Shown: in pieces, positions 13,964 to 60,640 of the stretch
Numbering within the stretch: the first letter of the stretch is position 1
Layout of the letters: the number at the start of each line of letters is the position of its first letter
DNA from: an uncultured Lentisphaerota bacterium
GTDB taxonomy: Bacteria > Verrucomicrobiota > Lentisphaeria > Victivallales > GWF2-50-93
Direction of reading: 5' to 3'
Assembly (NCBI GenBank): GCA_903872565.1
Contig: CAIQLG010000012.1
Location: 18,337-82,336, forward strand
Length of the DNA stretch: 64,000 nt
The notes under the pieces: generated by a model
What the model was told of the DNA's origin: nothing
The model's database searches: none
What the model saw: only the letters and a program-made list of their open reading frames with translations
Program-made: the position numbers and the translations under genes

Positions 13964-13970
13964 CTATATA

Positions 13971-17255: not shown

Positions 17256-17356
17256 CGTTACTCTCCTTCCAGTTAAATGATTTCTCTTTAAATCAGATTT
17301 TATTTCCGTTGCCCTCGGATGGCCATAAGCCTGCGGGATTTCTGGCAGATTGGTAT

Positions 17357-17977: not shown

Positions 17978-18074
17978 GGTATTCCCCTTGTTTTACAATT
18001 CCCTTTTTTTCAGAACAGAAGCACCATCTTTTCAGATTTTTAATGCTTTATTCTTCTTTTCCAGCATTATATAT

Positions 18075-18090
18075 AGCAGGATTGATGCCA
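18075..18090 (-). promoter_or_regulatory. Candidate sigma54 (-24/-12) promoter upstream of the short gvpA-like ORF
   Basis: The minus strand reads TGGCATCAATCCTGCT, preceded by CAGCTATA as at the gvpA copy 2 element. About 100 nt upstream of ATG 17977. Confidence 0.5.
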
Positions 18091-18256
18091 TAAGTTATAG
18101 CTGGTGTTTTCATAAGTTCCTATCTTTATTAATATAAACATCTTGCATATATACAAAAAAATAATATGTCAAAATATACGGTGTCTGAAGGCTTCCTATA
18201 TGGTGATTATATGGGACAAATCCGGGCAGAATGGTTGGATTTGCCACAGAAAAGAA

Positions 18257-31976: not shown

Positions 31977-31979
31977 AAA

Positions 31980-33089
31980 ATGGATGCAATGACTCCGAGA
32001 GAACGTTTCGTAGCGTCTATGACTTTTAAACCAGTTGATCGCTGTTTTCTGAAGCCTTCCAATTTTTCGCCGTTGACGATAAAGAGATGGGAAAAAGAGG
32101 GACTTCCGAGCGGACTCGATCCTAACATCTATTTTGGAATGGATCCGCGGGAGTTCATACGGGTAAACATGGAGTGCTGTCCTGGCTTGCCGGAAAAAAT
32201 AATCGAGACGGATGATGAATATGTCACCAAGACCAACTCGGAAGGCATCACTCTGAAACAGCTCAAGTCTGACACGCTTTCGGCAATGCCTCATTTCGTT
32301 GACTGGCCGATCAAATGCCGTGATGATTTTAAACGAATCAAGGACCAGTATCAAGCAAGTGTAAAGGAACGGTATCCCAAGGATTACGAGGAGAAAGTGG
32401 ATTTCTGGAATAACCGCTGCACTGCTCCTGTTGTTTATGAATTCCGGGGAATGTTTTTCCACCGCTTGCGGATGTGGATGGGGCTGGAGGGGCTTAGCAT
32501 GGCAATGTATGATGATCCCGGATGGATACACGAAATGGTCGATTTTCTTGAAGATTTCCTGGTGAAAGTTTCAGCAAAGGTTTTATCGGAAGTTAAACTT
32601 AGCTATGTCTATGCATGTGATGACATAGCATATAAGAACGCTTCCCTTATCTCACCAAAACAGTTTTACGAGTTTTTCTTTGAACCTACGAGGAGAATGG
32701 TACGGAAGGTTCATGATGCAGGAGTGCCTGTCATCGTCATGGATTCAGATGGTAACCTTGATGAATTTGCGCAGATTTATCTTGATGCAGGTTTCAATAC
32801 CATCTGTCCAATAGAGGTTGCTGCAGGGAATGATTTGATAGCAATGCGTAAGCGCTTTGGCAAGAAATTGGCATTGCAGGGCGGATTTGACAAGAGAATT
32901 CTTACGATGGGTAAAGATGCCATCACCAAGGAAGTGATGCGTCTTTATCCAAGGATGATGTCAGAGGGGGGATTTACTCCTGAAATAGACCACGCGGTCC
33001 CTGAAAACGTCTCTTTTGAAAATTATAGGCACTATCAGGAAATTACCAGAAAAATAGCCGAGAATCCAGTGCATCATACAATAAAATAA
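31980..33089 (+). CDS. URO-D family protein, paralog U2
   Basis: MDAMTPRERFVASMTFKPVDRC... Highly similar throughout to U3. Starts 3 nt after the U1 stop. Confidence 0.8.
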   Translation: MDAMTPRERFVASMTFKPVDRCFLKPSNFSPLTIKRWEKEGLPSGLDPNIYFGMDPREFIRVNMECCPGLPEKIIETDDEYVTKTNSEGITLKQLKSDTLSAMPHFVDWPIKCRDDFKRIKDQYQASVKERYPKDYEEKVDFWNNRCTAPVVYEFRGMFFHRLRMWMGLEGLSMAMYDDPGWIHEMVDFLEDFLVKVSAKVLSEVKLSYVYACDDIAYKNASLISPKQFYEFFFEPTRRMVRKVHDAGVPVIVMDSDGNLDEFAQIYLDAGFNTICPIEVAAGNDLIAMRKRFGKKLALQGGFDKRILTMGKDAITKEVMRLYPRMMSEGGFTPEIDHAVPENVSFENYRHYQEITRKIAENPVHHTIK

Positions 33090-33163
33090 GAAAGGAATTT
33101 ATCGAATGAACAGCAGCAAACTCCTGAGCCCATTGAAACGTGCGCTCCTAAGGAATAAATAAA

Positions 33164-34270
33164 ATGAAAGCAATGACTCCGAGAGAACGTTTTGTTGCCA
33201 GCCTGACCTTTCAACCCGTTGACCGCTGTTTTGTGAAATCTGACAGTCCTATGCCTAGGACGCGAAAACGGTGGGAGAAGGAGGGGCTGCCGGAAGGCGT
33301 AGAGCCTAGCGTGCATCTGGGAATGGACGCTAGGGAATACGTGAAAGTTTACATGGAATGCTATCCCGGTTTTGAAGAACGGGTGATCAGCGAGGACTCT
33401 GAGTATGTCGTAAAGACGAACTCGGAAGGCATCGTGCTGAAACAGCCAAAGGAGGACGCTCTTTCGGTTATGCCCCAGTTCTTTGACTGGCCGGTAAAGG
33501 GTCGCAAGGATTTCGAACGCATGAAGGAGCAGTTTCTGCCAAGTATATCCGGGCGCTATTCCGCTGACTACGATCAGAAACTCGATTATTGGAACAATTT
33601 GTGCACCAATCCGGTTGGCTATGAGTTTCGCGGCGGCTTTTTCCATCGGCTGCATATGTGGATGGGGCTAGAGGGATTGTGTTTTGCCATGTTTGAAGAT
33701 CCGGACTGGGTGCATGAAATGGTCGCATTCCTGGAAGACTGGATGTTCAAGGTATCGGAAAAGGTGCTCTCAGAGGTGAAGCTGGATTTCGTATACATGT
33801 GCGACGACATCGCTTATAAAACTGCATCGCTCATTTCACCGGCGCATTTCCGTGAATTCTTTTTCGATGCGGAACGCAGGATAATTGATCGGGTTCGCCG
33901 TGCCGGCATACCGGTAATCATTATGGACACCGATGGCAATATCGATGAGTTTGCCGCAATATATGGAGAAGTGGGATTCAATGTGACAACCCCCATTGAG
34001 GTGGCCGCTGGCAATGATCTTATAAAGCTCAGGAAACGCTTTGGAAGGAATCTTGCACTACAGGGCGGCTTCGACAAGCGGGTGCTTGCCGCCGGACGCA
34101 AGGCAATACATACTGAGGTGATGCGCCTTTACCCGCGACTGATGGCTGAAGGGGGATTCATCCCTGGCATCGATCACCAGGTGCCGGAAGATGTCTCATG
34201 GGATTCATATCGATACTATGTGGAATTGACTCATCAGATTTCAGAAAATCCGGGGAGGTACGTAAAATGA
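33164..34270 (+). CDS. URO-D family protein, paralog U3
   Basis: MKAMTPRERFVASLTFQPVDRC... Tandem duplicate of U2. Confidence 0.8.
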   Translation: MKAMTPRERFVASLTFQPVDRCFVKSDSPMPRTRKRWEKEGLPEGVEPSVHLGMDAREYVKVYMECYPGFEERVISEDSEYVVKTNSEGIVLKQPKEDALSVMPQFFDWPVKGRKDFERMKEQFLPSISGRYSADYDQKLDYWNNLCTNPVGYEFRGGFFHRLHMWMGLEGLCFAMFEDPDWVHEMVAFLEDWMFKVSEKVLSEVKLDFVYMCDDIAYKTASLISPAHFREFFFDAERRIIDRVRRAGIPVIIMDTDGNIDEFAAIYGEVGFNVTTPIEVAAGNDLIKLRKRFGRNLALQGGFDKRVLAAGRKAIHTEVMRLYPRLMAEGGFIPGIDHQVPEDVSWDSYRYYVELTHQISENPGRYVK

Positions 34271-35331
34271 CAAGCATAGAACGGATAGAGAAAGTATTGA
34301 AACGGGAAAAGGCGGACAGGCCGGCATGTTCTCTGAGGTGCACACCGGAAGTATGGGATGATTTAATGCGGCATTTTGGAGTTGCCACAAAAGCGGATGT
34401 CCTGGATAAGTTGGATGTTGATCTTCGTTGGGTGTCTGTTCCGTTCTGCGGGCCAAATGATCGGTCAGCACCAACCATGGGAGGCGCGGGCACCGATCTT
34501 TGGGGCAACGTCATGGAGGCCTCAAAGAACGAGTTCAACACCTATTATGAAATTGTCAGGCACCCGCTGGCCAACTGCAAAACGGTAGACGAAATCATGG
34601 ACTATGCGTGGCCCAGTCTCGACTGGTGGGATTATTCCAAAATCAAAGATGATATAAAAGCCAACAATAAAAGCGGTGACAGGGCGATTTTGTATACCTG
34701 CGGCGGCGGTTTTGAACATGCATGGTATATGCGGGGGATGGAGCAATTCCTTGTTGACCTGTATGAAGATCCTGCAATTGTCACCGCCATTTTATCCAAG
34801 ATAATTGAGTACGCTTATAAAAAAGCCATGAGGGTGTTGGAAGCGGCCGACGGTAAAATAAATATTGTTGCTGCCGGAGGTGATATCGGCGGACAGGATG
34901 GGCTCATGCTTAGCCCTGAGATCTGGCGGGAGCTGATCAAGCCACATAGTGCAGGGCTGATTGTACCGTTCAAGAAAATGGGTTTTGGCACATTTTATCA
35001 TTCCTGTGGATCGGTCACAGAGGTGATCGACGATTTTATCGGGATGGGGCTTGATATGATTGATCCCATTCAGGTTACAGCGCGCAATATGCAGCCGGAA
35101 AACCTTTTCAATAGATTCGGAGACAGGATATCCTTTCACGGCGCTATTGACGAGCAGCACCTTTTACCGCACGCCTCGCCCAGAGAGGTCTACGATGAGA
35201 CGACAAGAATAATCTCGATACTTGGAGGAAACGGGGGCTATGTGGTTTCCCCTTCGCATCAGATACAGGGCGACACAAGCGTGGCGAACATCGTTGCAAT
35301 TTATAAGGCTGTTAAAGATTTTCGTTATTAG
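34267..35331 (+). CDS. URO-D family protein, paralog U4
   Basis: Start trimmed to ATG 34267 (MTSIERIEKVLKREKADRPA), giving an ATGA start/stop overlap with U3. Closest paralog is U6. Confidence 0.8.
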   Translation: MTSIERIEKVLKREKADRPACSLRCTPEVWDDLMRHFGVATKADVLDKLDVDLRWVSVPFCGPNDRSAPTMGGAGTDLWGNVMEASKNEFNTYYEIVRHPLANCKTVDEIMDYAWPSLDWWDYSKIKDDIKANNKSGDRAILYTCGGGFEHAWYMRGMEQFLVDLYEDPAIVTAILSKIIEYAYKKAMRVLEAADGKINIVAAGGDIGGQDGLMLSPEIWRELIKPHSAGLIVPFKKMGFGTFYHSCGSVTEVIDDFIGMGLDMIDPIQVTARNMQPENLFNRFGDRISFHGAIDEQHLLPHASPREVYDETTRIISILGGNGGYVVSPSHQIQGDTSVANIVAIYKAVKDFRY

Positions 35332-35530
35332 CGGGGGAATCTTCAGGCTTGAATCATAGTCATCCCACAGGATGACGGATTGATGGATTTTTGGATTGCC
35401 CGCCTTCGTCCAATTCGGACTACGGCGTGGCATGTTGGATTATTGGTTTTGAGTTAAGAAAAAGCAAAGACGCATGGAATTGGAATTGAAATAAAAAAAG
35501 GCATTTTGAAAAAAAATGAGGAAAATAAAT

Positions 35531-36514
35531 ATGATGACTTCACGTGAACGTGTATTGACAGCTCTCAAGGGCAAGGAGGCAGACAGGGTTCCATTCTGTG
35601 AACAGAGCATAGCGCAGAATGTGGTCATGTCAATAGCTGGAAGAGATAAGGAATTAACTCAAAAAGAAATCTCGAAACTTCTCAAAAGGGATAATGTCGC
35701 CTTTGACCTTACGCCTCCGATATTTGCCAGAAAAGAAATTTCCGATGATGGACAATCTTATTATACAGAAGGACTTATCAAGACACGGGATGATCTGAAA
35801 TTGATGAAGTTTCCTGATCCCAAGGATAAGGAACTTATCGCCAGGGCGAAAGAATTTGTCAAAGGCAAGGAGGATTATGCGGCAGCAGCATCTGTCAGGC
35901 TCGGGGCGGCAGGAATGTTGAACAGCATGGGGGTGGACAATTTCTGCATGGCGCTGGCGGATGATCCGTCGCTGGTTTCCGAGATCCTGGAGAAGTATGC
36001 GGAATGGACGATGTCACTCATGGAATGGGTCAATGAAATAGGTTTTGACCTTGTCTGGTCTTTCGATGATATCGCCTTTAGGACAGCCCCGCTTTTTTCC
36101 CCGGAAGTATTCCGCGAAATTTTTCTCCCTGTCTTGCGAAAGGCATCTTCAACCATAAAACTTCCATGGATTTATCACAGCGATGGAAACCTGATGCCCA
36201 TATTGGATGATCTGTTGACACTGGGCATGTCCGGATTGCATCCTGTTGAGCCTGAAGCGATGGATATAGAAAAACTCAAACTCGATTATGGTCGGCGTAT
36301 TTGCCTGCTTGGCAACATAAATGTCCACCACTTGGCCACGAGGAGCCCGGAAGAAATAGACGAAGAAGTCAAGGAGAGGATTAGTTGCATTGCCTTGGGA
36401 GGCGGTTATATTGTGTCAAGTTCAAACAGCATTCCGTCGTACGCAAAGCCTGAAAACTTTCTGGCGATGGCAAAGGCGATACAGAAGTATGGGAAATATC
36501 CGATTCATTTGTAA
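35531..36514 (+). CDS. URO-D family protein, paralog U5
   Basis: Start trimmed to ATG 35531 (MMTSRERVLTAL, GAGGA SD). The C-terminal half is close to U1. Confidence 0.8.
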   Translation: MMTSRERVLTALKGKEADRVPFCEQSIAQNVVMSIAGRDKELTQKEISKLLKRDNVAFDLTPPIFARKEISDDGQSYYTEGLIKTRDDLKLMKFPDPKDKELIARAKEFVKGKEDYAAAASVRLGAAGMLNSMGVDNFCMALADDPSLVSEILEKYAEWTMSLMEWVNEIGFDLVWSFDDIAFRTAPLFSPEVFREIFLPVLRKASSTIKLPWIYHSDGNLMPILDDLLTLGMSGLHPVEPEAMDIEKLKLDYGRRICLLGNINVHHLATRSPEEIDEEVKERISCIALGGGYIVSSSNSIPSYAKPENFLAMAKAIQKYGKYPIHL

Positions 36515-36612
36515 AAGCCTGAAGTTATAGAGAAAAACATGAGGAAGTGTAACCTCAAGAGCAGGAATAATTTTTGTGTCGGAAATTAAATTTATTCAGG
36601 GATTGCAGCAAA

Positions 36613-38199
36613 ATGCAAAGACTTAACTGTAAACTGCTAAAGAAAACGGACAAGTATTCTCAAAAAGTTGAAGCAGTCAAAATCAATGATTTCCCAGAGA
36701 AAGTCATCCAATTTGGAGAAGGTGCTTTCCTTAGGGGGTTTATGGATTACATGATAAACCGTATGAATGAAGCGGGCGTCTTCAAAGGGAGAGTGATTGT
36801 TGTTCAACCAATAGAGCAAGGTTTATCGGAGGCATTCAATGGTCAAGATTGCCTGTATACTCTTGTTCAAAGGGGAATGGAAGATGGTGGGATATATGAG
36901 AAAATTGAAATAATAACTGCGGGAAGCAGATGTATCAATCCATACACAAGATGGCAGGAGTATATTGCTTGTGCATCCCAATCGGAACTGAGGCTTGTCG
37001 TTTCCAATACAACAGAAGCAGGGATTGCGTTTGTAGATGAAAGAAAACCAGAGGACAATTGCCCGGCTTCCTTCCCTGCAAAGCTAACAGCGTTTTTACA
37101 TGAAAGATATCTTGTGTTTGATGGTGCGCATGACAAAGGCATGATTATGCTTCCATGCGAACTGATAGAACGGAACGGAGATCAATTGAAGGAAATTGTC
37201 TTAAAGCTTTCAGACCGATGGCTGCTCGGTTCCGGATTCAACCAATGGATTAAAGAGAGCAACTATTTCTTGAACACCCTGGTGGATAGTATTGTTCCAG
37301 GGTATCCGAAAGATGAGATAGAAGAAATTCAAACGGAATTGGGCTATGAGGATAAACTTCTGGTAGTTTCCGAGCCTTATCGCTTGCTTGTAATTGAAGG
37401 AGACAGCCGGTGCTCTGAAGAGTTGCCCTTTGCTGCCGCAGGTATAAATGCAGTTTGGACAGATGACATAAGCAAATATAGAAATCTGAAAGTAAGAATA
37501 CTGAATGGCTCACACACAATGACTGCGTTGGCAGCGTATTTGTGCGGCAAAGATACTTTCATTGAGTGCATGGAAGATGAGCTTGTAGGAAAATATATTC
37601 AAAAGGGGATATCCGAGGAAATTGTGCCTTCTATTGAACTTCCTGACAGTATTAAGATGGATTATGCCAACACTGTTATTTCAAGGTTTAAAAACCCATT
37701 TATCAAGCATCCACTATTAAATATTTCACTTAACTCGACTTCAAAATTCACCGTAAGAATTTTACCTTCCTTATTGGCCTACTCTCGCTTGAAAAAGAAA
37801 CTGCCTGACATTCTGTGTTTTTCGCTGGCGGCACTCATAAGATTTTACATGGGAACGGAAGTGGAGGGTTGTGCCTTGATTGGTAAGAGGAATGAAGAAG
37901 TGTATTTGATAAGGGATGATAAAAACAAACTTGAGTTAATGGCAAAGGAATGGAAAGCGTTTAAGAGCCACGGAGATATAAGATTACTTTGCGGCAGACT
38001 GCTGGCCGATGCGGAAATATGGGGAGTGAATCTGGATGGGATAGAGGGCCTGACCTGTAAGGTGGCAGAGCATTTTTCATATATCATGCAAAATGGTATA
38101 AAGGCCGCAATTCAGAAGGTGACTGGAACATGTGAAGTAGCGCCTGCACAGATTTGTGAATGTCAACCACAGATCGCAAACAGCATAGATTGCCATTAA
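36613..38199 (+). CDS. uxaB: Mannitol-dehydrogenase-family oxidoreductase, tagaturonate (altronate) reductase-like
   Basis: FPEKVIQFGEGAFLRGFMDYMINRMNEAGVFKGRVIVVQP matches the UxaB N-terminal signature. Start trimmed to ATG 36613. Symbol is tentative. Confidence 0.75.
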   Translation: MQRLNCKLLKKTDKYSQKVEAVKINDFPEKVIQFGEGAFLRGFMDYMINRMNEAGVFKGRVIVVQPIEQGLSEAFNGQDCLYTLVQRGMEDGGIYEKIEIITAGSRCINPYTRWQEYIACASQSELRLVVSNTTEAGIAFVDERKPEDNCPASFPAKLTAFLHERYLVFDGAHDKGMIMLPCELIERNGDQLKEIVLKLSDRWLLGSGFNQWIKESNYFLNTLVDSIVPGYPKDEIEEIQTELGYEDKLLVVSEPYRLLVIEGDSRCSEELPFAAAGINAVWTDDISKYRNLKVRILNGSHTMTALAAYLCGKDTFIECMEDELVGKYIQKGISEEIVPSIELPDSIKMDYANTVISRFKNPFIKHPLLNISLNSTSKFTVRILPSLLAYSRLKKKLPDILCFSLAALIRFYMGTEVEGCALIGKRNEEVYLIRDDKNKLELMAKEWKAFKSHGDIRLLCGRLLADAEIWGVNLDGIEGLTCKVAEHFSYIMQNGIKAAIQKVTGTCEVAPAQICECQPQIANSIDCH

Positions 38200-38238
38200 A
38201 AAATCAAGAACATTTTGCAATGAAGGTCTAATTACATT

Positions 38239-39378
38239 ATGAAGAAAGAATTTACGATGACTTCTAGAGAGAGAATGAGGGCTGCCGTGGCCCATAAAAT
38301 ACCTGACAGGGTGCCTGTTGATCTCAATGGCCGTGGATCGGCTATCGAGGAGGGCGCTTACAATGATCTGAAAAACTATCTTGGCATAGATGCAGATGTG
38401 CCAACAGTGAATTTTATCCGTTCACATGCCACAATTTCGGATGAGATACTGGATATGTTCAATGTTGATGTCCGCTATGTCCGTAGTGTGCCATCCGAAA
38501 GCTGGCGGAAAGAAGGCGGCGACGAGTTCTTTTTTGATCAGTGGAAAGTGCCGTGGAAAAAGGCGTCGGGCAGCCATTATTTTGATATAGACAGATTTAT
38601 CTTTAAGGACATTACTGAGGATGATATCGACAAGCTATCCTGGCCAGAACTTATTACCGACTGCATGATAGCCAACATCAAAAAGCAGGCAAAGCATTTG
38701 CATGAGACGACAGATTACAGCATTTATACCGACGTATTAGGTTCCGCCATTTTTGAGAGTGCCTGGTATCTCAGAGGCTTTGAACAGTTCATGATCGATA
38801 TGATGGTTGACGAAGGATTTGCCGCGAAATTTCTGCGCAAGGTGCTGGATTTGCAGCTTGATGCCTATGGTAAGCTCTTAAGCGAGACAGCACAATATAT
38901 AGACGGCATATTCGTGACCGACGACCTGGCATCCCAGGAAAGTTTATTAATGTCCAATGAGTTGTATAAAAAAATGATCCAACCCTACCAGAGGGAGCTT
39001 ATTGGCTTTATCCATTCAAAAGGCGTGAATGTGGTTTACCATAGTTGTGGCGCAATATCTCAGATGCTGCCTGATCTGATCGAAGCAGGCATCAATATTT
39101 TACACCCCGTACAGCTTTCTGCAAAAGGGATGGATCCGGACATCCTCAAGAGAGAGTATGGCGATAAGCTGACATTTTGGGGTGGGGGCTGCAATAGTCA
39201 AAAAACACTGCAGTTCGGCTCAGTCCAGGAGGTTAAGGATGAGGTGAAGTTCCGCCTTGAGAGGCTTGCGTCCGGAGGTGGATATGTATTTGCCCCAGAG
39301 CATTGCATCCAGTCAGGAACCCCTCCCAGAAATATTGTGGCCATGTTTGAAACGGTAAAAGAGTTCGGTGTGTATTGA
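38239..39378 (+). CDS. URO-D family protein, paralog U6
   Basis: MKKEFTMTSRERMRAAVAHKIPDRVPVDL... The C-terminal GGGYVFAPEHCIQSGTPPRNIVAMFETV is paralogous to U4. Confidence 0.8.
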   Translation: MKKEFTMTSRERMRAAVAHKIPDRVPVDLNGRGSAIEEGAYNDLKNYLGIDADVPTVNFIRSHATISDEILDMFNVDVRYVRSVPSESWRKEGGDEFFFDQWKVPWKKASGSHYFDIDRFIFKDITEDDIDKLSWPELITDCMIANIKKQAKHLHETTDYSIYTDVLGSAIFESAWYLRGFEQFMIDMMVDEGFAAKFLRKVLDLQLDAYGKLLSETAQYIDGIFVTDDLASQESLLMSNELYKKMIQPYQRELIGFIHSKGVNVVYHSCGAISQMLPDLIEAGINILHPVQLSAKGMDPDILKREYGDKLTFWGGGCNSQKTLQFGSVQEVKDEVKFRLERLASGGGYVFAPEHCIQSGTPPRNIVAMFETVKEFGVY

Positions 39379-49411: not shown

Positions 49412-49510
49412 GGAGGGCAGGGGGGGCACAAAAAGATATAAATCACATTCATATGTAATAGATTTATAGTCAATATGATATATACTATTAATGATATTGG
49501 CTTTAGTCTC

Positions 49511-49526
49511 TGGCATCCTTCCTGCT
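49511..49526 (+). promoter_or_regulatory. Candidate sigma54 (-24/-12) promoter upstream of the secreted peptidase gene
   Basis: TGGCATCCTTCCTGCT on the + strand, one mismatch from the gvpA copy 2 element. About 88 nt upstream of ATG 49614. Confidence 0.5.
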
Positions 49527-49613
49527 GTTACTAGACCCAATTGCACCGTTACGGTTAAGAATGGTGCCGTCCGGGCGCTGTCGCTGCAACATTACAATTA
49601 AGGAGAAATAGAA

Positions 49614-51029
49614 ATGAAATGGAAAATGTTTTTTGCAGTCCTGTCAGTCATGTATGTCGTCTCATCGGTTCAGGCTCAGGAAAATGACCTGCCATATGGC
49701 GTAATGAGACCTGATGCGAAAACCCTCAAAAAATGGAATGAGAACTTTCTCCGGCAGCCACTTGCGGAAGTCTCTTCCACCCGTGCAAGCAAACGTGGGA
49801 ATTTTTCACTTCTCGGCCACTTGAATTTTGATCCTGTCCTGCGCGATCAGGGGCGTACCGGGACCTGCTGGATATGGGCTGGCACAGGTTGCCTTTCCAT
49901 CGCTCTTGATATCCAGAAGTCTGTCGCGTCAGAGCTCATGAACGGCCTTTCTGTCCAGTTTCTGGCATCGAACGAGGCGCTTGTTGGTGCCACCTACGAA
50001 TCAGGCGGCGATATGCCGCAGATCATTGATTTTTACTCACGTGTCGGATATTCCATCGCCTGGACAAACACCAGCGCCGAATGGCAGGACGGTGACGGAG
50101 TACAGAATTGCCCGAGCTCATGGATCCACACCAATCCGCGCTATCCGATCAGCGCAATAAGCTTGTCGGCAGTTTCAACCACTGGCGTTGATCAGGCGAC
50201 GGCCATAGCAAACATCAAAGACGCCCTGAACCAGGACAATCCGATATCTTTGGCATTTTATATGCCGACCGATAAGGACTGGCTTGGCTTTTCCACATTT
50301 TGGAGCAATGACCCCGAGACCACGATCATAAATCTGGATAAATATCCTGTCGCCCCCTGGGATAATGGCGCAGGACACGGTGTCGTGTGCGTCGGCTATA
50401 ATGATGACGCACCGGAACTCGAAAACCAGTACTGGATAATCCTCAACAGCTGGGGAGATGCCGACGGGAAACGCCCGGACGGATGCTTCCGACTCTCGAT
50501 GAATCTCGACTATTCAAAACAGCTCACCCAGGGAAGTTCAACTTTTTACGCCTACCAATGGAGCATATTCAATGTCAAATTTTCAGATGTCATGAACAAG
50601 CGTTTTGACAGCGTGTCATTCAATTTCAACAATGCCAGGACGGACGCGGACACGTGCACAATATCGAAATACACCTTCTCGGGTTCAGCTCCCACGGCCA
50701 TATCGAATGCGGTTCTGCGCATGAACGGGTATGACATCACTTGCAATAGCAGCACCGGAACGTGGAGCGCAAATGGAAAAATCTTCAAATTCAAAAGCAA
50801 GCCCAATGGCGGTGCGAAGGTTGAGATTACAGTTGACGGCAATAAAAATTTCTGGAGCTCAAAGGTTACTAAAAGCGACATCAACAGATATGTGAACTAT
50901 TACGATGCGCTTGATTTTGACCTTTCGACTTCTCCCAACGAATCGGCACCGGTGGTTCTCGGCAATTCATGCACCCTGATGTTTGACGATCTCTGCCCTA
51001 AAGCCTCCGGAAAGGCAAAGAAAAAATAA
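49614..51029 (+). CDS. Secreted papain-like (C1-family-like) cysteine peptidase with C-terminal beta-rich domain
   Basis: Signal peptide MKWKMFFAVLSVMYVVSSVQA. Catalytic-Cys context DQGRTGTCWIWAG, His context GAGHGVVCVGY, YWIILNSWG. Confidence 0.65.
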   Translation: MKWKMFFAVLSVMYVVSSVQAQENDLPYGVMRPDAKTLKKWNENFLRQPLAEVSSTRASKRGNFSLLGHLNFDPVLRDQGRTGTCWIWAGTGCLSIALDIQKSVASELMNGLSVQFLASNEALVGATYESGGDMPQIIDFYSRVGYSIAWTNTSAEWQDGDGVQNCPSSWIHTNPRYPISAISLSAVSTTGVDQATAIANIKDALNQDNPISLAFYMPTDKDWLGFSTFWSNDPETTIINLDKYPVAPWDNGAGHGVVCVGYNDDAPELENQYWIILNSWGDADGKRPDGCFRLSMNLDYSKQLTQGSSTFYAYQWSIFNVKFSDVMNKRFDSVSFNFNNARTDADTCTISKYTFSGSAPTAISNAVLRMNGYDITCNSSTGTWSANGKIFKFKSKPNGGAKVEITVDGNKNFWSSKVTKSDINRYVNYYDALDFDLSTSPNESAPVVLGNSCTLMFDDLCPKASGKAKKK

Positions 51030-53659: not shown

Positions 53660-56600
53660 CTATTTGTCTTTAATCTGGTCAAATCCTGTGATGCGGCTGC
53701 CGCTGAATTTTGCGCGATAAAGCAAATCCGAGCTCGTGTCCTTGAATATGACTTCATCCCTTCCGTCCCCGTCCGAATCGGATGATTGGATGAACTCGAA
53801 GTTTTTCAGTGCGAGCCTCTGTCCTTTCGGTGCCATATCCCATCCGACAATTCCTCTGTCTATGCGGATTTCGCAGTTCTGTGAATTGAACCAGACGATT
53901 TCGGAGGTACCGTCGCCATCGAAATCTCCAGTGGCGACCACCATCACCGATTTGTCGAGTCCGTGCCAGAGGAGACGTTTCTTGCCTGTAAGCGGGCTGT
54001 AAATCCAGAACGGTCCTGAATCCGCGCCACTTCTCGATATTACCTCCGAGGCTCCGTCGCCGTCGAAATCTCCGGAACCTATTATCTGGCAGGGGGCCAC
54101 AGGATCAAGTAGCAGAGAACCCATTTCACTGCCTTTCAAACTGTCGCTTCCCGAAGCGAAATGTCTTCCGTCGTCGGCTGTCCACAGGGAGTCGCTTTTT
54201 CCGTCGCCATCGAAGTCGTCTCTTGGCACGATTTGCCTGGCGTGGAAGACTAGTTCGACATCCGTGGCATCATTAACTTCCTTTGTGCCGGGACGGAACT
54301 TGAATCCATCAAACGATGGAGCAACCACGTATTTGTCCTGCGGGACTCTTGTGAATTTGAAATTGCCATTGGCATCGGTCTGAACCATGCCAAGAACTCC
54401 ACTTCTCATATGCAGGCGGACAATTGCGGTCTTGGATGCTGGAAGATCTTCGACCCGCCCGGTAATATTGATAAAAGTGTTGGTCGCGGATTTTTTGATC
54501 GTGAAATTAACGTCTTCGATGTCTTTGTTGGTCATTTTTTTGCTTATTGAAACCGGGTCGAACACAAATCCTGTTTTCGAAGGAGTGAAGGTATATGTCG
54601 CCGGTGTGAGCATGAAGGAGAATTTTCCGTCCTTGTCGGTCATCGCGGACTGATCAGCTCCGTTAGGCGACTTCACTGTTATTTTCACGCCGTCGGCATC
54701 GCTTTGCGTCACCTGCCCCTTGGCGGCGAAGACGGAGACAGGATCCGCGTTGAAAATAAGATTGGGATATTTGTCGTAGCCCATGGATGAAGTCAGATCG
54801 AAAGTGTAGCTCTTGTCCTTGTCTTTCGAAGATTCGAACTGATATGCGGAATATGATGGAGTGATGGTGTAGTTCCCGGTGTCGAGGGCATCGAACTGGA
54901 ACGTCCCGTCCCTTTCACTCGTGAAAGTCACTCTCTTGTAACCACTCTTGTCATTTTTCACAAGGGTGACCATCGCTCCGCCGAAAGGTTCCCATGAGGC
55001 GCCATTCTTGCTGCGGATTTTCCCGAATGCCAGATTCTTCGCATTCTCCGAGGAAGTCGTGTTGAAATCAACACCTGAAATGTCCTTGTCCACAATCTCA
55101 AGCTCCCTGCTGACCGGGGTGAAAGTTTTTTTGTTGAAACTCGGGACAAGCGTATATTTCCCCGGGCGCAAACCGGTGATTTTATACATTCCCAGCTCCT
55201 TGTCCTCCATGTATACCAGTCTGCTGAATTTTTCGCCGATTACTGCAATTGCGGCACCGGATGTCTTGTTTCCCTGTCCATCGGTAAGCCCTAGAATGTT
55301 CCCGGAAATGTCGTAGGAATATCTTGCCACAATGGTCCGATTTGTCTTTATGGGAAGAGCGGATAGTACGGGATTTGTCGGATCTATGAATCCAGAGGAA
55401 TCGCCCTGGCTGTCGGTCCATTTTGCGAACTTCGCAGAGCCGAACTGCGCTGGCGCGGAAACGGTCACTGTCTCTCCCGTCTTGAAGATTCTCGAGAATG
55501 GAGCACGTCCGGAACCGTATCCATTCTGGTCGATCTTGTCGAAGAGAATGGTGGGGGAAATTCCTTCGTCTGACTTCACGATAAGCTCGGAAATGGAAGA
55601 ATCCTGTTTGAGCATCGAATATTTGATATTAACTTTGAGGCTCTTGATGCTGAAGCTGTCTTCCGAGTCGGATGGTGCACCTTTCATGGCTGTTCTGCCG
55701 GATCCCTCGCCTCTGAGGGATTTGCTTTCCTTGTTCTCCATGGATTTTTTGATGTTTATCGTGGCATTCGCTGAGGGCCAGCAAAATATCGGCATTTCCG
55801 CATCAGTGACTGCAAGCTTCTTGTCGGTAAGTATGGTCTTAAGCAGAGACGCCTCGGCCACGCTTGGGACAATTTGAGTGATACTTTTCGTCGTATATGT
55901 GTATTTGCCGCCCCAAACTATCTTATTGTCGCCCGAAGTGGAATTGTAGTGTCGGAAACGATAGGCGTTGCCCTTTGCCGTGCTGAGGTCGGAAACGCCG
56001 TCATGAGTGAAGAACACTGAGAAGTTGGCGTTCTTGGTCGAAGGCGCCCATGGCGCGAGCCCGACATTCATCTCGGTCACTTCGATACTTCTGATGCGCA
56101 GTCCCTGTTCGCTGCCGAACAATCCGGTTTTTTGAAAATTGATCTCGAGTGTTTCGCCCCGGTTTAGGGCATCGAGCTGGTTCGGGTGGAACTCATAGGT
56201 GGTTTCGGTATCGCTTTCGCTCGATTTGCGCATGTTTATGATTTCATCGTAGAGTTGAGCGCACATCTTCCAGATCACATCGGAATAGAGAGTCTTGAGC
56301 TGTTTGAACTGACCTTCATTGAGTGTGGAGCCGGCATTGTCAACCTCGACGAGTTTGATGATGCTGTTCTTGAGATCGCTCAGATCGAGCGGGGTGGTAT
56401 ATTCCTTGAGCATGCGGTATTCGTAGGCCTTCTTCATGTAGTAATGATATTTGATGAGGTTGTCCTCCGCCCGCTTCGAGAGTTCGTCGAGATAGCTGTC
56501 AAGTCTCGGGTCAATCGCACCCTGCCGCAGCAGGACTTGATTCTGGATGCTGTCTATGGCGTTCAGGGATGCGGTCATCTGGTTCGTGTAGAATGCGACG

Positions 56601-59428
56601 CTGGCACAAGCCTGGGCGATTTGTGCGGCGACATCCTTCTTCTTTTCCACCAGCTTGGCAACTTTATCTCCAAGTTCCCTGAATTCAGGGGTTTGCTCCT
56701 GCAGCTTTTTGATTTCAGCCTGGACTTCCGGATCGCTGACGGCGTTCTGGCCGGTCGCGCTGGCCAGGGATTTTATCGAATTTGCAAGACCACCACCGGC
56801 GGTCGCAATCCCGTTGAGGTGTTCGCCAATAGGATCCTTGTCCCTGTATTTATTTTCCCATGCTATCCAGTTGTCATCTCCCTGTTCCGGCCCGTTGGAA
56901 TAATATTTCTTTATTTCTCCACTTTTGAACTTACTTACCAGGCTGCTGTTCCAACCCTTGACTCCAGCCTTGTTGAATGCCTTGCCGAGGCCGCCAAGAC
57001 CTGCGGTTACAGCGCCAGCCGCATCGCCGTTGACTGCGCTCGAAACCACATCTCCCAGAGTGCCGCCAATCTGTCCGAGCATTGGCTGCCCCACGGGGAT
57101 TATGGAGCAAATTGTGCCGAGCACCTTGAAGACTGTGCTGAGTATCCGCTTGTTCTTGACAGTTTCCGCGGCCTGCCTCTGTAATTCACTGTTTAGAGCG
57201 GCCAAGCTGGATCTTGTCTGCGCCTCGAGATTGTCAGTATCGTTCGCCTCTCTTTGGAGCTGCGGCATTATCTTGTCAAGTTCCTCGAGTTTATTGAGTG
57301 ACTCCTTGACTTTTTCTCCGGTTTTGTTCCTGAGACGCCACAGGCCAGCGAGTTTGCTCTGATTATTTGCCGAAGTCTTTTTCAGCCAGTATGTCAGGTA
57401 CATGGTGTCTATCGAGTGGTCTATCTGCTGGCTGAAGGCCACGATGCTCAGTTCGAAGGAAATCATGGGTGTCCAGCCCGCGGGATTGCCGTAGTAGTCA
57501 AGTCCGTTGCCGATATTTGAAAGAACGGACTGGAACTCGCCTGACTGCTGGGTTATCTCAGTTTTCGCCTGGTTTTCAAGTTTCTGCTCTTCTCTCTTTT
57601 TAAGTTCAGTGTCGAATGACGGGGAATAATATTGGAACCAGACATCCTCCTCGATGGCCTTCTGCGTGTATCCCGCCCAGCGGTCGGCCAGAGTTTTCGC
57701 ATAGTCAATCTTTCCGTTCAGACATGCGGCTTTGATATATTTCATCGCCTGTGCCGCCGAAAGGGGATGTATCCAGGCCATCGTCTTGGCTTTATTCAAC
57801 ATGTACTTCTGCCCACTTTTTCCCGGATTCGCAGGACTGGGAACGTCTGAATCTGCCCCGGGTGTCGATTCGTGTATTCCAGTGATATTACTGTAGTCAT
57901 CGTAGTACGCAGGGGCCCGCCTGCCAAGACGTCTGGATAATTTAGTGCCTTTATAGAAAAAAACACAATTACCCAAGAAGAACCCTGATTCAGTTCCTCC
58001 TTCCATGGCGAAAGCCGGATTTGGATTTCCGCATGCTCCGCCCTTCGGCAACGGTGTCTGAACAGCGCCGGCGGCACCCCCTGATAATCCGACGATTGAA
58101 TTGATTGACGGGTAGCTCGACTCGATGTTTCCCCCTACGCCCCCATGTCCGCCAGCACCGGCATTTCTCGCCTTTGTCCCGTTGCCGGGCTGCCACTTTT
58201 CGAACTCAAATTTATCGTTGACTGCTCCACATGCCTTCCAGCCACCGATGCCTGGTTTGAAGAGTGCAGCAGTGGTATGTTCCTTAAGATATTTGTCAAT
58301 AGCAACGTAGTAGGGACCGTTTTCCGGGACGACAAGGTAAATCCCATATTTTAACCCATTGAGATTCGCGCGAAGAAATGGATTGCTCGCATAGGCGTAG
58401 ACATAGGGTTTGCTCGGCCAGTCCCAGACCTTATTGGTACTATTCTTGGCCATCGTATCCCGTGATTCCCCGTCCATACCGTTTGCGCCACGCCCGCCTT
58501 CCTGTCCCGCGGAACCTAAAGATGAAAACAATGTTTTCCCAGAGGAGCTCGGTGTTATACTGCTGACGAAAAGGCTGATATTGCCGCCGGTTTCGCCATC
58601 GTGGCCTTTCTGTGCCTCGGCGCCTGAACTACAATCAGCGGCGCGGATTGAAAATGGCAGCGGGGTGGTGTCAATGACAGCACCGTTCTCGAAAACAAGT
58701 TCCTTGGCGAAAAGCAGCAAGTTTGTCTTCGGGAAGGATGCATTACTTCTCACTATGATTTTTTCGGCGGCGATAGTAAGCTTCTTAAGGTCGACGTTGA
58801 GATCGGTCTGCCCCTCCTTGTAAGAACAGAATTTCTCATAAATACCATTGTCATGCCCCTTCTGGATTACAATTGTGAGGCCGGAGACGGTGGCCGTCCG
58901 GGGCTTCCGGTTCGTGGTATTGAAGAATTCCTCGACATCGGACTTGCTTTCCGTTACGAGTATGTAATCCTTGGATTCGGTGTCCGGTGCCGGAAATGAC
59001 GAGCTGACAGTGTTGAAGCATTTGACATCATCCGGAATTTTCATTGTCGGAAGAATCAGAAAGCTCTGGGTTTCGAAAAGTTCGTTGGCGGTCGCCTTTA
59101 CATTCACTTCGATCGTGGTATTAGAGGTTGCTGCAGGGATATATTTGAAAAGTCCATTGGCGCTTATCGTGCAGCCTACTGGTGCATTTTCGAGTGAAAA
59201 TGCAGGAGATGTAAGCAGAGATGATCTTATTTCGAGCTGAAACGCCTTTGGAGCCGCTGGATCGAAATAATGGATCTGATCAGGAATCGAACCAATATAA
59301 ACTGCCGGCACCTTGTCCTGGGCGCTGGTGTTGAAAACAAGACAAAGTGAGATTAGCGCAAAAAACGCCGCAATGTGATTCCTGAAAAACGTATTCGTGC
59401 AGATTGAAGGAAGTGAGAGATTTTTCAT
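53660..59428 (-). CDS. Giant (1922 aa) secreted multidomain protein: Ig-like N-terminus, Gly-rich region, long helical region with hydrophobic Gly-zipper segment, CarboxypepD_reg/Cna-B-like beta-sandwich repeats, C-terminal FG-GAP/VCBS repeats
   Basis: Signal-like N-terminus ...AAFFALISLCLVFNTSAQD. Repeated beta-sandwich units (GKYTLVPSF.., GNYTITPSY.., ATYTFTPSK.., DKYVVAPSF..). DFDGDGKSD, GDFDGDGASE, GDFDGDGTSE, DSDGDGRDE at the C-terminus. GGGAGAG SD. Confidence 0.85.
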   Translation of the reverse strand: MKNLSLPSICTNTFFRNHIAAFFALISLCLVFNTSAQDKVPAVYIGSIPDQIHYFDPAAPKAFQLEIRSSLLTSPAFSLENAPVGCTISANGLFKYIPAATSNTTIEVNVKATANELFETQSFLILPTMKIPDDVKCFNTVSSSFPAPDTESKDYILVTESKSDVEEFFNTTNRKPRTATVSGLTIVIQKGHDNGIYEKFCSYKEGQTDLNVDLKKLTIAAEKIIVRSNASFPKTNLLLFAKELVFENGAVIDTTPLPFSIRAADCSSGAEAQKGHDGETGGNISLFVSSITPSSSGKTLFSSLGSAGQEGGRGANGMDGESRDTMAKNSTNKVWDWPSKPYVYAYASNPFLRANLNGLKYGIYLVVPENGPYYVAIDKYLKEHTTAALFKPGIGGWKACGAVNDKFEFEKWQPGNGTKARNAGAGGHGGVGGNIESSYPSINSIVGLSGGAAGAVQTPLPKGGACGNPNPAFAMEGGTESGFFLGNCVFFYKGTKLSRRLGRRAPAYYDDYSNITGIHESTPGADSDVPSPANPGKSGQKYMLNKAKTMAWIHPLSAAQAMKYIKAACLNGKIDYAKTLADRWAGYTQKAIEEDVWFQYYSPSFDTELKKREEQKLENQAKTEITQQSGEFQSVLSNIGNGLDYYGNPAGWTPMISFELSIVAFSQQIDHSIDTMYLTYWLKKTSANNQSKLAGLWRLRNKTGEKVKESLNKLEELDKIMPQLQREANDTDNLEAQTRSSLAALNSELQRQAAETVKNKRILSTVFKVLGTICSIIPVGQPMLGQIGGTLGDVVSSAVNGDAAGAVTAGLGGLGKAFNKAGVKGWNSSLVSKFKSGEIKKYYSNGPEQGDDNWIAWENKYRDKDPIGEHLNGIATAGGGLANSIKSLASATGQNAVSDPEVQAEIKKLQEQTPEFRELGDKVAKLVEKKKDVAAQIAQACASVAFYTNQMTASLNAIDSIQNQVLLRQGAIDPRLDSYLDELSKRAEDNLIKYHYYMKKAYEYRMLKEYTTPLDLSDLKNSIIKLVEVDNAGSTLNEGQFKQLKTLYSDVIWKMCAQLYDEIINMRKSSESDTETTYEFHPNQLDALNRGETLEINFQKTGLFGSEQGLRIRSIEVTEMNVGLAPWAPSTKNANFSVFFTHDGVSDLSTAKGNAYRFRHYNSTSGDNKIVWGGKYTYTTKSITQIVPSVAEASLLKTILTDKKLAVTDAEMPIFCWPSANATINIKKSMENKESKSLRGEGSGRTAMKGAPSDSEDSFSIKSLKVNIKYSMLKQDSSISELIVKSDEGISPTILFDKIDQNGYGSGRAPFSRIFKTGETVTVSAPAQFGSAKFAKWTDSQGDSSGFIDPTNPVLSALPIKTNRTIVARYSYDISGNILGLTDGQGNKTSGAAIAVIGEKFSRLVYMEDKELGMYKITGLRPGKYTLVPSFNKKTFTPVSRELEIVDKDISGVDFNTTSSENAKNLAFGKIRSKNGASWEPFGGAMVTLVKNDKSGYKRVTFTSERDGTFQFDALDTGNYTITPSYSAYQFESSKDKDKSYTFDLTSSMGYDKYPNLIFNADPVSVFAAKGQVTQSDADGVKITVKSPNGADQSAMTDKDGKFSFMLTPATYTFTPSKTGFVFDPVSISKKMTNKDIEDVNFTIKKSATNTFINITGRVEDLPASKTAIVRLHMRSGVLGMVQTDANGNFKFTRVPQDKYVVAPSFDGFKFRPGTKEVNDATDVELVFHARQIVPRDDFDGDGKSDSLWTADDGRHFASGSDSLKGSEMGSLLLDPVAPCQIIGSGDFDGDGASEVISRSGADSGPFWIYSPLTGKKRLLWHGLDKSVMVVATGDFDGDGTSEIVWFNSQNCEIRIDRGIVGWDMAPKGQRLALKNFEFIQSSDSDGDGRDEVIFKDTSSDLLYRAKFSGSRITGFDQIKDK

Positions 59429-59438
59429 GTTTCTCTCC

Positions 59439-60215
59439 CTACTTCATCAGTTTTATGTTGATTCCGCTTATTGCTCCCTGGCTGTCCGCTGTCATGTTCG
59501 TCACCTCCCAGGTCTGTGCCTTCTGAACGCCCACTGGCGCGATGGAAAGGTAATAGCCATTGGCACTGAATTCCTTGAGCTTCTTCGACAGTTTAAGGTC
59601 GTATATTTGAACGGTGAGGGTCTGTTTATTCTCCGCATCGGGAACTGAGCTCGTCGAAATAATCAGATCACCACCCAGGAGTTCGGCACTTATCTGAGTG
59701 TCAAACTGGAGCTGGCCGACCTTCTCAAAACCTTTTTTCGCGAGCTTACAGCTGGTCAGGCAATATTTACCGCCCACGCTGGTCATGAAAAATGCATGAT
59801 TCTTCCCATAGGCCAGAAGTTGCGGGATTGCGATTTCGTTTTGAAGATCGACTGTGCCTGTGACAATTGTCTTGGAATCCTTGCCGAGGACTGTCATGGT
59901 TGTTACGCCGAGATAGGCGCCGTCCACGTTCGAGAGAAGGTAGTCGACGACGAGCAGTGTCTTATTGTCGCAGGCCATGTCTGCAACAGGCATTTCTCCA
60001 AGAACGAGATTCCATTCCGCGATTACACGCGAAGCGTTTGTGGCATCTTTACTTTCCGCAGGCGCATCCCAGGGGAAACAGATCAATCCGGCAATGGATG
60101 CAGCAGCCGCGAATTTCTGGAACATTTTCCTGTGCTGCACAATCCCTTCGCAATGTATCATCCGGTCAACAACTCCGAGCAAGCTTGAGCATCCGACTGT
60201 TTTTTCAGTTGCCAT
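59439..60215 (-). CDS. Hypothetical exported protein whose ORF begins with a GvpA N-terminal module (alternative start at 60125 gives a plain signal peptide)
   Basis: The first 30 codons, MATEKTVGCSSLLGVVDRMIHCEGIVQHRK, parallel Gvp[26 protein letters not shown]. Then MFQKFAAAASIAGLICFPWDAPAES looks like a signal peptide. SD AGAGG serves ATG 60215; only AGGA at short spacing serves ATG 60125. Confidence 0.6.
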   Translation of the reverse strand: MATEKTVGCSSLLGVVDRMIHCEGIVQHRKMFQKFAAAASIAGLICFPWDAPAESKDATNASRVIAEWNLVLGEMPVADMACDNKTLLVVDYLLSNVDGAYLGVTTMTVLGKDSKTIVTGTVDLQNEIAIPQLLAYGKNHAFFMTSVGGKYCLTSCKLAKKGFEKVGQLQFDTQISAELLGGDLIISTSSVPDAENKQTLTVQIYDLKLSKKLKEFSANGYYLSIAPVGVQKAQTWEVTNMTADSQGAISGINIKLMK

Positions 60216-60290
60216 TTTCTTACCTCTTTTTTTGCTGGTTGAGTTTTATTCTTTCAACCTTAACTGTAACGCGCAATGAGGCCTAGTACA

Positions 60291-60306
60291 AGCAGGAGGG
60301 ATGCCC
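60291..60306 (-). promoter_or_regulatory. Candidate sigma54 (-24/-12) promoter upstream of the gvpA-module ORF / giant protein operon
   Basis: The minus strand reads GGGCATCCCTCCTGCT (GG-N10-GC). About 75 nt upstream of ATG 60215. Confidence 0.45.
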
Positions 60307-60405
60307 AAAGACTGAGACGATATTTTATAATTTCTTTAACATCTTAATGATTAATATGTTAGATATAAAATAAAACATGAAATTAATCTGAATAAATTTA
60401 TGCCC

Positions 60406-60480
60406 TAGACAATCTCGGCGGAAGCCTCTCCGCACGAGATCATCTGCTGGAATCACATTTCAAACTCCAAATTTCGCAAT
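60406..60480. repeat. Third (inverted, imperfect) copy of the 41-nt nested hairpin family
   Basis: TAGACAATCTCG-GCGGAAGCCTCTCCGC-ACGAGATCATCT followed by TCACATTTCAAACTCCAAATTTCGC. The latter resembles the reverse complement of the 19172..19200 leader. Confidence 0.55.
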
Positions 60481-60564: not shown

Positions 60565-60640
60565 GCCCGGGTAGCTCAGGGGATAGAGCAGCAGTTTCCT
60601 AAACTGTTGGTCGGAGGTTCGATTCCTCTCCCGGGTACCA
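60565..60640 (+). tRNA. tRNA-Arg (anticodon CCT), CCA encoded
   Basis: Hand-folded cloverleaf. Acceptor GCCCGGG/CCCGGGT (G1-U72 wobble), D arm GCTC-aggggata-GAGC. Anticodon arm GCAGT-ttCCTaa-ACTGT, T arm GGAGG-ttcgatt-CCTCT. 76 nt. Confidence 0.9.

Follow-up and report, generated by a model that had tools for sequence, protein, structure and literature searches.

In-frame fusion of a gvpA1-type promoter-leader-start segment with an exported-protein gene, within the predicted signal peptide, in an uncultured Lentisphaerota bacterium

ORF258, an open reading frame (ORF) of 258 amino acids (aa) that begins with MATEKTVGCSSLLGVVDRMIHCEGIVQHRKMFQKFAAAASIAGLICFPWDAPAESK, lies on the minus strand of a 64,000-nucleotide (nt) stretch of contig CAIQLG010000012.1 from an uncultured freshwater Lentisphaerota bacterium; the whole of this stretch is referred to here as the window. 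Its opening residues resemble those of the gas vesicle protein GvpA, although the gas vesicle genes of the window are far away, and the remainder encodes a predicted signal peptide and an exported protein. The ORF258 stop codon is separated by 10 nt from the start of a gene for a giant exported protein of 1922 aa, which has its own Shine-Dalgarno (SD) site, GGAGAG; the same distance had been given by an earlier reading of the DNA made without database searches (the sequence-only reading). The pairing of an ORF258-type gene with a giant gene across a gap of 8 to 10 nt is kept in the homologous loci L002 to L005. Genes for a GNAT and a beta-lactamase-family protein lie upstream of ORF258 on the same strand. 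ORF258 matches no Pfam (E ≤ 0.01) or NCBIfam family, and a profile search of PDB sequences revealed no solved structure related to it. An AlphaFold2 model built from a 10-sequence alignment had a mean predicted local distance difference test score of 46 (<50 for residues 1 to 78) and gave no usable fold. Coordinates of the features discussed are collected in Table 1.

The 5' end of ORF258 is homologous to gvpA. ORF258 and GvpA share 16 of 26 residues in BLASTP (62%; E = 3e-6), and a sister allele of ORF258 (protein P0001) shares 20 of 26 (E = 2e-9). Within the window, blastn aligned positions 60247..60160 with 11986..11899 at gvpA1 (78% over 89 nt; E = 1e-12), a match that takes in 19 codons and, before them, approximately 30 nt of the leader, including the SD site. 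Weaker DNA matches of this module were found to gvpA2 (73%; E = 4e-5) and to a gvpA-like ORF at 17.9 kb (70%). Strong DNA homology stops at codon 19 (60160), and for codons 20 to 26, through “GIV” (60138), it is only suggestive. Formal alignment of both DNA and protein thus bore out the sequence-only reading that ORF258 opens like GvpA. Of the 90-nt module then proposed, the part through codon 19 is firm, and the distance of about 42 kb given for it applies to the nearest gvp-related genes, gvpA itself being about 48 kb away.

The first 19 to 25 residues of ORF258 correspond to the N-terminal coil and alpha1 helix of GvpA, and it is only there that ORF258 corresponds to GvpA and its paralogs GvpJ and GvpM (PF00741); the rest is unrelated. 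ORF258 has neither the beta-hairpin, which forms the ribs of gas vesicles, nor the alpha2 helix. Whole-protein models of GvpA (PF00741 and NF006874, with a coil-alpha1-beta1-beta2-alpha2 core) do not recognize ORF258, whereas the genuine GvpA1 scores 131.6 bits. Judged by these profiles, ORF258 is not a member of the GvpA family. The leader AAAACT(A/C)AAC(C)AGCAA... is common to ORF258 and the gvpA1 of this lineage only, and the gvpA genes of other species differ in this region, which indicates that the donor was local. gvpA1 and gvpA2 (11446..11652, minus strand) encode one identical 68-aa protein, for which numerous metagenome contigs of several organisms also carry a gene.

A sigma54-type -24/-12 element precedes this leader and ends 76 nt before the ATG. 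It differs by one mismatch from the gvpA1 form, TGGCAT-N5-NTGCT, in that its -24 box is GGGCAT and that of all other copies is TGGCAT. Copies of the homologous segment of approximately 60 nt were sought with an nhmmer profile, which gave four hits in the window and no more (E = 1e-10 to 7e-14), upstream of gvpA1 (12053-11997), the gvpA-like ORF (18111-18057), a protease gene (49490-49548) and ORF258 (60327-60268); the same scan found no promoter of this type at gvpA2. The DNA upstream of ORF258 and that upstream of the protease gene are 80% identical over 56 nt (60313-60259 versus 49505-49559). The sequence-only reading had described an SD site and a sigma54-like element like those of gvpA, and three gvpA-type upstream regions. 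Both signals are present, the element with its one mismatch, and the promoter family is real, but it has four copies and gvpA2 is not among them.

Assignment of the element to sigma54 is based on its conservation before gvpA in different species, on the gene content of one such locus and on precedent. TGGCAT-N5-YTGCT also precedes the first gvpA copy in species whose upstream DNA is otherwise unrelated (L016, TGGCATGAATTCTGCT; L018, TGGCATTCTTGTTGCT), and in L018 a response-regulator/Sigma54_activat/HTH_8 (NtrC-type) gene is situated directly upstream of gvpA. Dependence of gvpA1 on sigma54 and GvrA was shown experimentally in Serratia sp. ATCC 39006 (PMC4982088). No sigma70-like site was found upstream of ORF258 on the same strand. 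The copy at the protease gene is situated 89 nt before the gene and lacks the upstream block described below; it hints at a larger promoter family or regulon to which secreted proteins belong.

Alignment of the promoter copies on their -24 GG reveals another conserved block, CTGTGGCAAWTC...YTGYCCG..TTT, which starts 160 to 162 nt upstream of the GG. The block occurs in five places: at gvpA1, at the gvpA-like ORF at 17.9 kb, at the gvpA of L015 and at the ORF258 alleles of L001 and L007. Its 12-mer has only two occurrences in the window, both at that offset. Its position, its conservation and a partial dyad (TGTGGCAA...TTGTCACA) make it possibly an activator-binding site. The L001 allele carries the block as CTGTGGCAAATC, and from there through codon 26 it aligns colinearly with gvpA1 (217 identities in 335 aligned positions), so that colinearity of the sister allele with gvpA1 reaches approximately 250 nt upstream of the ATG. 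The sister allele (L001:1-480 and L007:1-580) has the canonical TGGCAT box and a more GvpA-like peptide than the allele of the window; its upstream context contains GC-rich hairpin repeats and no tRNA-Arg gene.

Homology between the window and L001/L007 ends at approximately 60392-60408, at the edge of a palindromic repeat, and the block appears to have been lost from the window by rearrangement at this repeat. Further copies of the repeat were found by blastn at 19206-19255 (plus strand; 88%) and 18306-18353 (minus strand; 77%). The repeat has the core CTCGTGCGGAnAGnCTTCCGCCGAG and a length of approximately 45 to 75 nt, these two copies extending over 19180-19255 and 18306-18361 and flanking an IS630-family transposase fragment (18552..18980). 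The repeat may be an insertion sequence (IS) terminal repeat or miniature inverted-repeat transposable element (MITE), or a repetitive extragenic palindromic (REP)-like element; since each copy is itself palindromic, a REP/MITE-like nature is as possible as that of an IS630 terminal repeat. The near-perfect palindrome AACATATTAATCATTAAGATGTT within the AT-rich spacer, 33 to 55 nt upstream of the -24 GG, is present in both ORF258 alleles and not at gvpA1, and it may be bound by another regulator. Both alleles occur in samples of one metagenome project (BUCK21-1), and that of the window is the commoner of the alleles in metagenomes.

Translation of ORF258 could begin at three in-frame codons (Table 1). 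The sequence-only reading had offered the two ATG codons, at 60215 and 60125; both exist, and the GTG at 60138-60140 is a third candidate. The start at 60215 is favored because its SD spacing is the best, its SD/ATG block is the most conserved and the internal ATG is lost in allele L006, and the frame is open from the gvpA-derived ATG in all alleles. Hydropathy peaks at 2.19 over residues 37 to 47, within FAAAASIAGLICF, and is followed by A-P-A|ES (features assigned by hand), with a predicted cut after codon 53. The homologs' own short, signal-like N termini align to this stretch. As the module lies before the hydrophobic core and the A-x-A site, the GvpA-derived residues should be removed on export, and the mature protein would be identical whichever start is used. 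A lipoprotein signal was considered and rejected, given the I at -1 and the absence of Cys in the homologs, and ORF258 has no match to ESPR (PF13018) at the Pfam threshold given above.

Allele L006 has a 24-nt insertion after the module and a divergent signal peptide stretch (13/88 nt) amid otherwise identical sequence (L006:148-400). The inserted stretch is MPDTRVMVVPPRKIFLRFAAAAFIAG; measured back from the conserved ...I(A/S)G, its length equals that of the N terminus of the homolog P0002, and MAFFT aligns the internal Met of L006 with Met1 of P0002. This suggests that L006 keeps the ancestral start position of ORF258; alternatively, L006 may be a recombinant. Part of “IHCEGI” may be a former 5' untranslated region, including a GAAGGA ribosome site, that is now read through, and for this reason the firm end of gvpA homology is set at 60160 and that at 60138 is regarded as uncertain. 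Hypermutation of the signal peptide stretch of L006 by a diversity-generating retroelement was rejected, as the substitutions are of mixed types. Microhomology between the start regions of gvpA and L002 was also rejected as the recombination joint, as gvpA homology runs past that point.

The module is confined to close relatives. A search of 5.8 billion proteins yielded three clusters; seven proteins form the cluster at 96% identity, and one of these is the same as the protein of the window, giving eight variants with the window included. All eight (≥96% identity) carry the module in frame, one of them with the 24-nt in-frame insertion. Five other relatives (71%, ~55%, 40%, 32% and 26% identity) have no module and short, signal-like N termini: P0002 (71%) begins MKNSRTGAAKF... 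and P0003 (~55%) MKKGKTNRF..., each running straight into a hydrophobic signal-like segment, and the giant gene follows both of their genes after 8 to 10 nt. In a profile search of 1.84 billion representative proteins, the whole family comprised four clusters at 50% identity, of 230 to 241 aa and none with the extension, and scans of genome contigs and metagenome contigs with the family alignment found no further relatives. No sigma54-like element was found upstream of the homologs in the 541 nt scanned in L002 or the 71 to 80 nt scanned in L003 to L005. All eight variants carry the module and all other family members are without it, which marks it as a recent, lineage-specific acquisition. 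The comparison of orthologous loci that had been proposed as a check gave a split result, with conservation of the module in all variants of the species-level cluster and in none of the more distant homologs.

At least 14 contigs, assembled independently and stemming from several projects, contain the junction, which is present in two diverged alleles; a junction-specific DNA pattern of 28 nt had no matches in metagenome contigs. The contigs of L006, L009, L012 and L021 end 80 to 150 nt upstream of the ORF258 ATG, at the repeated promoter, which is consistent with assembly breaks at a multicopy or polymorphic segment.

Divergence between the window and L001 is very uneven: 22% in the AT-rich spacer, 14% in the promoter and leader, 5.7% (2/35) in the 35-nt SD/ATG block, which is the best-conserved part of the 5' region, 12.8% (10/78 nt, seven of the 10 differences nonsynonymous) in codons 1 to 26 of the module, 6.8% in the signal peptide and 0.5% (3/611) in the mature coding part. 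The module and the mature part differ significantly (Fisher P = 4e-8). In the giant gene, divergence is patchy (0 to 7% per 100 nt), and the proportion of synonymous differences (pS) is 0.049. The proportion of nonsynonymous differences (pN) in the module is 0.115 to 0.116, and pS is 0.11 to 0.17, giving pN/pS of 0.66 to 1.03, compared with 0.06 to 0.14 for the mature part; the pN of the module (0.115) is not below the background pS. With pN/pS of approximately 1 in the module and approximately 0.1 in the mature part, the GvpA-derived residues are not under purifying selection and evolve neutrally. When gvpA was used as the outgroup (sequences compared by eye), seven of eight polarizable differences in the module were changes in the lineage of the window, away from gvpA. 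Over the first 57 nt, L001 has 49 identities to gvpA1 and the window 43. Five of the first 14 residues are replaced in the allele of the window, including positions equivalent to rib-contact residues.

Table 1. Positions of ORF258, its 5' elements and related features in the 64,000-nt window
Feature	Position	Strand	Remarks
ORF258 (258 aa)	59439..60215	-	GvpA-derived N terminus, then signal peptide (predicted) and a mature all-beta domain outside known families
gvpA-derived coding module, codons 1-26	60138..60215	-	From blastn and BLASTP to GvpA
gvpA1-type leader	60216..60250	-	SD AGAGG at 60223-60227; in gvpA1 blastn match
Start codon ATG	60213-60215	-	Ribosome site AGAGG, spacing 7 nt
Alternative in-frame start GTG	60138-60140	-	SD-like GAAGGG, spacing 3 nt
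Alternative in-frame start ATG	60123-60125	-	AGGA, spacing 2 nt; ATA in allele L006
Native part of predicted signal peptide	60057..60137	-	Basic n-region QHRKMFQK, core FAAAASIAGLICF at 60075-60113, A-P-A motif
Sigma54-type -24/-12 element	60291..60306	-	GGGCAT-N5-CTGCT; GG at 60304-60305, GC at 60292-60293; GG-N10-GC spacing
Promoter-family copy at ORF258	60268..60327	-	nhmmer E = 1.2e-13; one of four homologous segments of ~60 nt
AT-rich spacer common with sister allele	60307..60392	-	Near-perfect 23-bp palindrome AACATATTAATCATTAAGATGTT at 60338-60360
Palindromic repeat element, ~75 nt	60400..60473	-	Where the sister allele has the gvpA-type upstream block
tRNA-Arg(CCT)	60565..60640	+	Divergent from ORF258; not upstream of sister allele
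Giant 1922-aa exported protein gene	53660..59428	-	CarboxypepD_reg (three), SpaA/SdrD-B-like and FG-GAP domains
gvpA1 donor-type locus	11748..12194	-	Coding sequence 11748-11954, leader, sigma54-type promoter 12018-12033, upstream block CTGTGGCAATTC... at ~12150-12194
Second gvpA-derived module	17819..18249	-	52-aa GvpA paralog 17819-17977, sigma54-type promoter 18075-18090, upstream block ~18205-18249
Fourth promoter copy and secreted papain-family (Peptidase_C1) protease gene	49490..51029	+	Promoter core 49511-49526, gene 49614-51029

The comparisons show, at the level of sequence, that a gvpA1 regulatory segment has been joined in frame to the 5' end of the gene for an exported protein, the joint lying within the n-region of the predicted signal peptide. 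The fullest known captured segment, of approximately 330 bp, comprises the upstream block, the AT-rich spacer, the sigma54 promoter, the leader and SD site, the ATG and 19 to 25 codons. It has taken the place of the gene's own promoter and probably also of the original ribosome site and start codon. Our preferred explanation of the whole, with a probability of roughly 0.6, is capture: promoter, leader and start were acquired together through a graft that joined them, in frame, to a signal peptide that is cleaved off. RNA polymerase with sigma54 would begin transcription near 60280, and ribosomes would use the gvpA-derived SD site and the ATG at 60215. The precursor would carry an unusually long signal peptide of 53 aa, and cleavage by signal peptidase after DAPA (residue 53) would release a mature protein as it was before the fusion, with the GvpA residues as a discarded passenger. 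The selectable effect would be regulatory, with a gvpA-type sigma54 promoter driving both ORF258 and the 1922-aa surface protein co-transcribed with it, and the envelope operon would join the set of genes expressed with gas vesicles. The feature is probably not a new kind of protein. Both a transplanted copy, as in the sequence-only reading, and a deletion that fused a neighboring stand-alone gvpA paralog (like that at 17.9 kb) to the operon fit the data.

A captured regulatory and leader module was one of two readings offered earlier, and it has gained from the extent of the homology, which spans promoter core, leader, SD site and ATG, and from the lack of the module in other homologs. The further claim, that the operon is under the same control as the gas vesicle genes, is plausible but may be weakened for the window itself. 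Several observations count against capture as a full account. The upstream block is absent from the window's ORF258, with no copy elsewhere upstream, and the promoter has T->G at -26. No sigma54 activator was found among 39 ORFs of the window scanned against Pfam, and there is no rpoN in the window; sigma54 promoters normally require an activator bound nearby. With the block absent and the -24 box altered, co-regulation with gas vesicles is less secure in this genome; coupling is plausible and may be weaker for this copy than for the sister allele. A signal peptide of canonical, short form would result from a start at either GTG 60140 or ATG 60125. The n-region of 33 residues from the upstream ATG is atypical for a Sec type I signal peptide, and a long n-region with an amphipathic segment could hinder export. 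Conservation of the frame rests on three distinct alleles only. The whole 5' region is a hotspot of divergence (12 to 22% versus 0.5% in the mature part), and as synonymous sites also look elevated, recombination or gene conversion probably shapes it besides relaxed constraint. Finally, the points at which transcription and translation begin and at which the precursor is cut are all inferred.

The main rival to capture is that the module is a decaying relic in this genome, its promoter silent or weak, with the operon transcribed by read-through or from another promoter, translation starting at GTG 60140 or ATG 60125 and the module serving as a leader that is irrelevant or untranslated. Such decay would account for the repeat element in the place of the upstream block, for GGGCAT instead of TGGCAT and for the derived state of seven of the eight polarizable differences. 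Signal peptides of a textbook 23 to 28 aa from the internal starts, and the apparent retention in L006 of an ATG at the ancestral position with an N-terminal length as in P0002, point the same way, and the GNAT and beta-lactamase-family genes upstream could supply the read-through. We nevertheless consider a relic unlikely. The gvpA-derived SD site and ATG are intact, ideally spaced and better conserved than their surroundings, the frame is open in all alleles and no alternative sigma70-like promoter was found, while a tRNA gene in antisense orientation and a repeat that forms a strong hairpin intervene between the upstream genes and ORF258. Decay is also at odds with the prevalence of the window's allele in metagenomes and with purifying selection on the coding sequence of the operon.

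The other of the earlier readings, a chimeric protein that makes use of the GvpA alpha1 helix, is not supported. A functional chimeric N terminus could anchor the precursor to nascent ribs or to proteins that handle GvpA, or slow export like an extended signal peptide. Retention of the frame in all alleles, even across the 24-nt insertion, would be expected of such a function; the N-terminal coil of GvpA binds the beta-hairpin of the neighboring rib (PMC9994262), and large surface proteins can carry long signal sequences (PMC2805444). The residues themselves are unconstrained, however, with pN/pS of about 1 and five of the first 14 replaced in this allele; the peptide lies before the cleavage site, has no beta-hairpin and no Pfam or NCBIfam match to GvpA or ESPR, and is absent from all other family members, which together make a functional N terminus very improbable. 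The coil and alpha1 helix of GvpA, moreover, act only together with the beta-hairpin core (PMC9994262). A stronger version, in which they are a working tag that transiently binds ribs or GvpA-handling proteins or delays Sec targeting, and the alleles are regulatory variants of one lake population, strains belief further; if true, export of ORF258 and the giant adhesin would be physically or temporally coupled to gas vesicle assembly. Control at the RNA level, in which a small RNA or RNA-binding protein would act on the leader and early coding RNA of gvpA and co-regulation would occur at translation, would explain why the SD/ATG region is the best conserved both between alleles and with gvpA1. 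It is nonetheless highly doubtful: 59900-60700 has no Rfam match except the tRNA, and folding of the leader and module of both alleles and of gvpA1 gave no common structure, the folds being no more stable than shuffled sequences (z-scores of +0.06, +1.8, -0.55 and -0.83) and different between alleles. Chance resemblance or an assembly chimera might be suspected from the shortness of the segment and from the frequent breakage of metagenome contigs near this promoter, but it has a negligible probability against a DNA match at E = 1e-12 and a junction recovered from so many independent contigs and from two diverged alleles.

Capture at ORF258 resembles the putative mobile promoters (PMPs) of Matus-Garcia, Nijveen and van Passel (2012; commentary, PMC3575422), in which a promoter region is reused before an unrelated gene and regulation is rewired. 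The ORF258/protease pair has the similarity required of PMPs (≥80% over ≥50 nt upstream) and agrees only approximately with their positional limit (-150 to -50). Unlike PMPs, the ORF258 copy continues through leader, SD site, ATG and about 20 codons as an in-frame fusion, its promoter is of the sigma54 type and one allele includes the upstream block. The PMP screen filtered out similarity running into coding sequence (commentary, PMC3575422), and the ORF258/gvpA1 pair would fall to that paralog filter because its similarity does so. All four promoter copies lie within 64 kb. With Serratia sp. ATCC 39006 (GvrA; PMC4982088), the locus shares a -24/-12 element upstream of the first gvpA; an NtrC-family activator gene adjoins gvpA in the relative L018, but none was found in the window scans, and the putative regulon here seems to reach secreted and surface proteins. 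In layout, ORF258 is also like the ESPR and other long signal peptides (PF13018; PMC2805444), with an extension of approximately 25 to 30 residues before a classical n-h-c arrangement and an operon for a giant surface protein. Its extension differs in being GvpA-derived, without sequence relation to ESPR, restricted to one species-level cluster and made of unconserved residues.

If capture is correct, ORF258 is a clean natural case of regulon growth, in which copying of one compact piece of DNA rewires an operon and the position of the joint inside a cleavable signal peptide makes the in-frame graft harmless to the mature protein. Gas vesicle formation may then go together with production of a giant surface protein, and perhaps of a secreted protease, which would link buoyancy with surface properties or attachment. 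The coexistence of alleles with and without the upstream block in the BUCK21-1 samples amounts to a built-in experiment. Start codon calls and “GvpA-like” N-terminal similarity at such a gene can mislead annotation.

The 52-aa GvpA paralog at 17.9 kb has a precisely deleted beta-hairpin, and its relatives are all close ones (94% and 83% identity) of equal length; it might be a pseudogene, or else act as a small regulator or cap. In the region 3648..15293 (minus strand), gvpA1 and gvpA2 lie amid three paralogous response-regulator/Ser-Thr-kinase fusions (6566..7885, 12441..13769 and 13971..15293) and two hybrid histidine kinases. No gvpN-, gvpJ- or gvpK-type gene was recognized in the window, GvpF/L at 15661..16413 being the exception among accessory genes. 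The best matches of GvpF/L among 185,579 species-representative genomes were in Victivallis and Lentisphaeria metagenome-assembled genomes (61 to 62% identity); their loci L019 and L020 have only a GvpJ/M-like gene within reach and are uninformative on gvpA promoters. An unusual fusion of a PTS-HPr domain with an AMPK-type glycogen-binding module is encoded beside GvpF/L (16539..17378, minus strand). Two paralogous ORFs of 228 and 263 aa directly downstream of gvpA2 (9864..11413, minus strand) match no Pfam or NCBIfam family and may be lineage-specific gas vesicle proteins in the position often held by GvpC. Elsewhere in the window, 30909..39378 (plus strand) contains six paralogous URO-D (uroporphyrinogen decarboxylase-like) genes, five of them adjacent and the sixth after a gene of the mannitol dehydrogenase family. 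The neighbors of this cluster encode FAD oxidoreductases, a BNR-repeat protein and a sialate O-acetylesterase.

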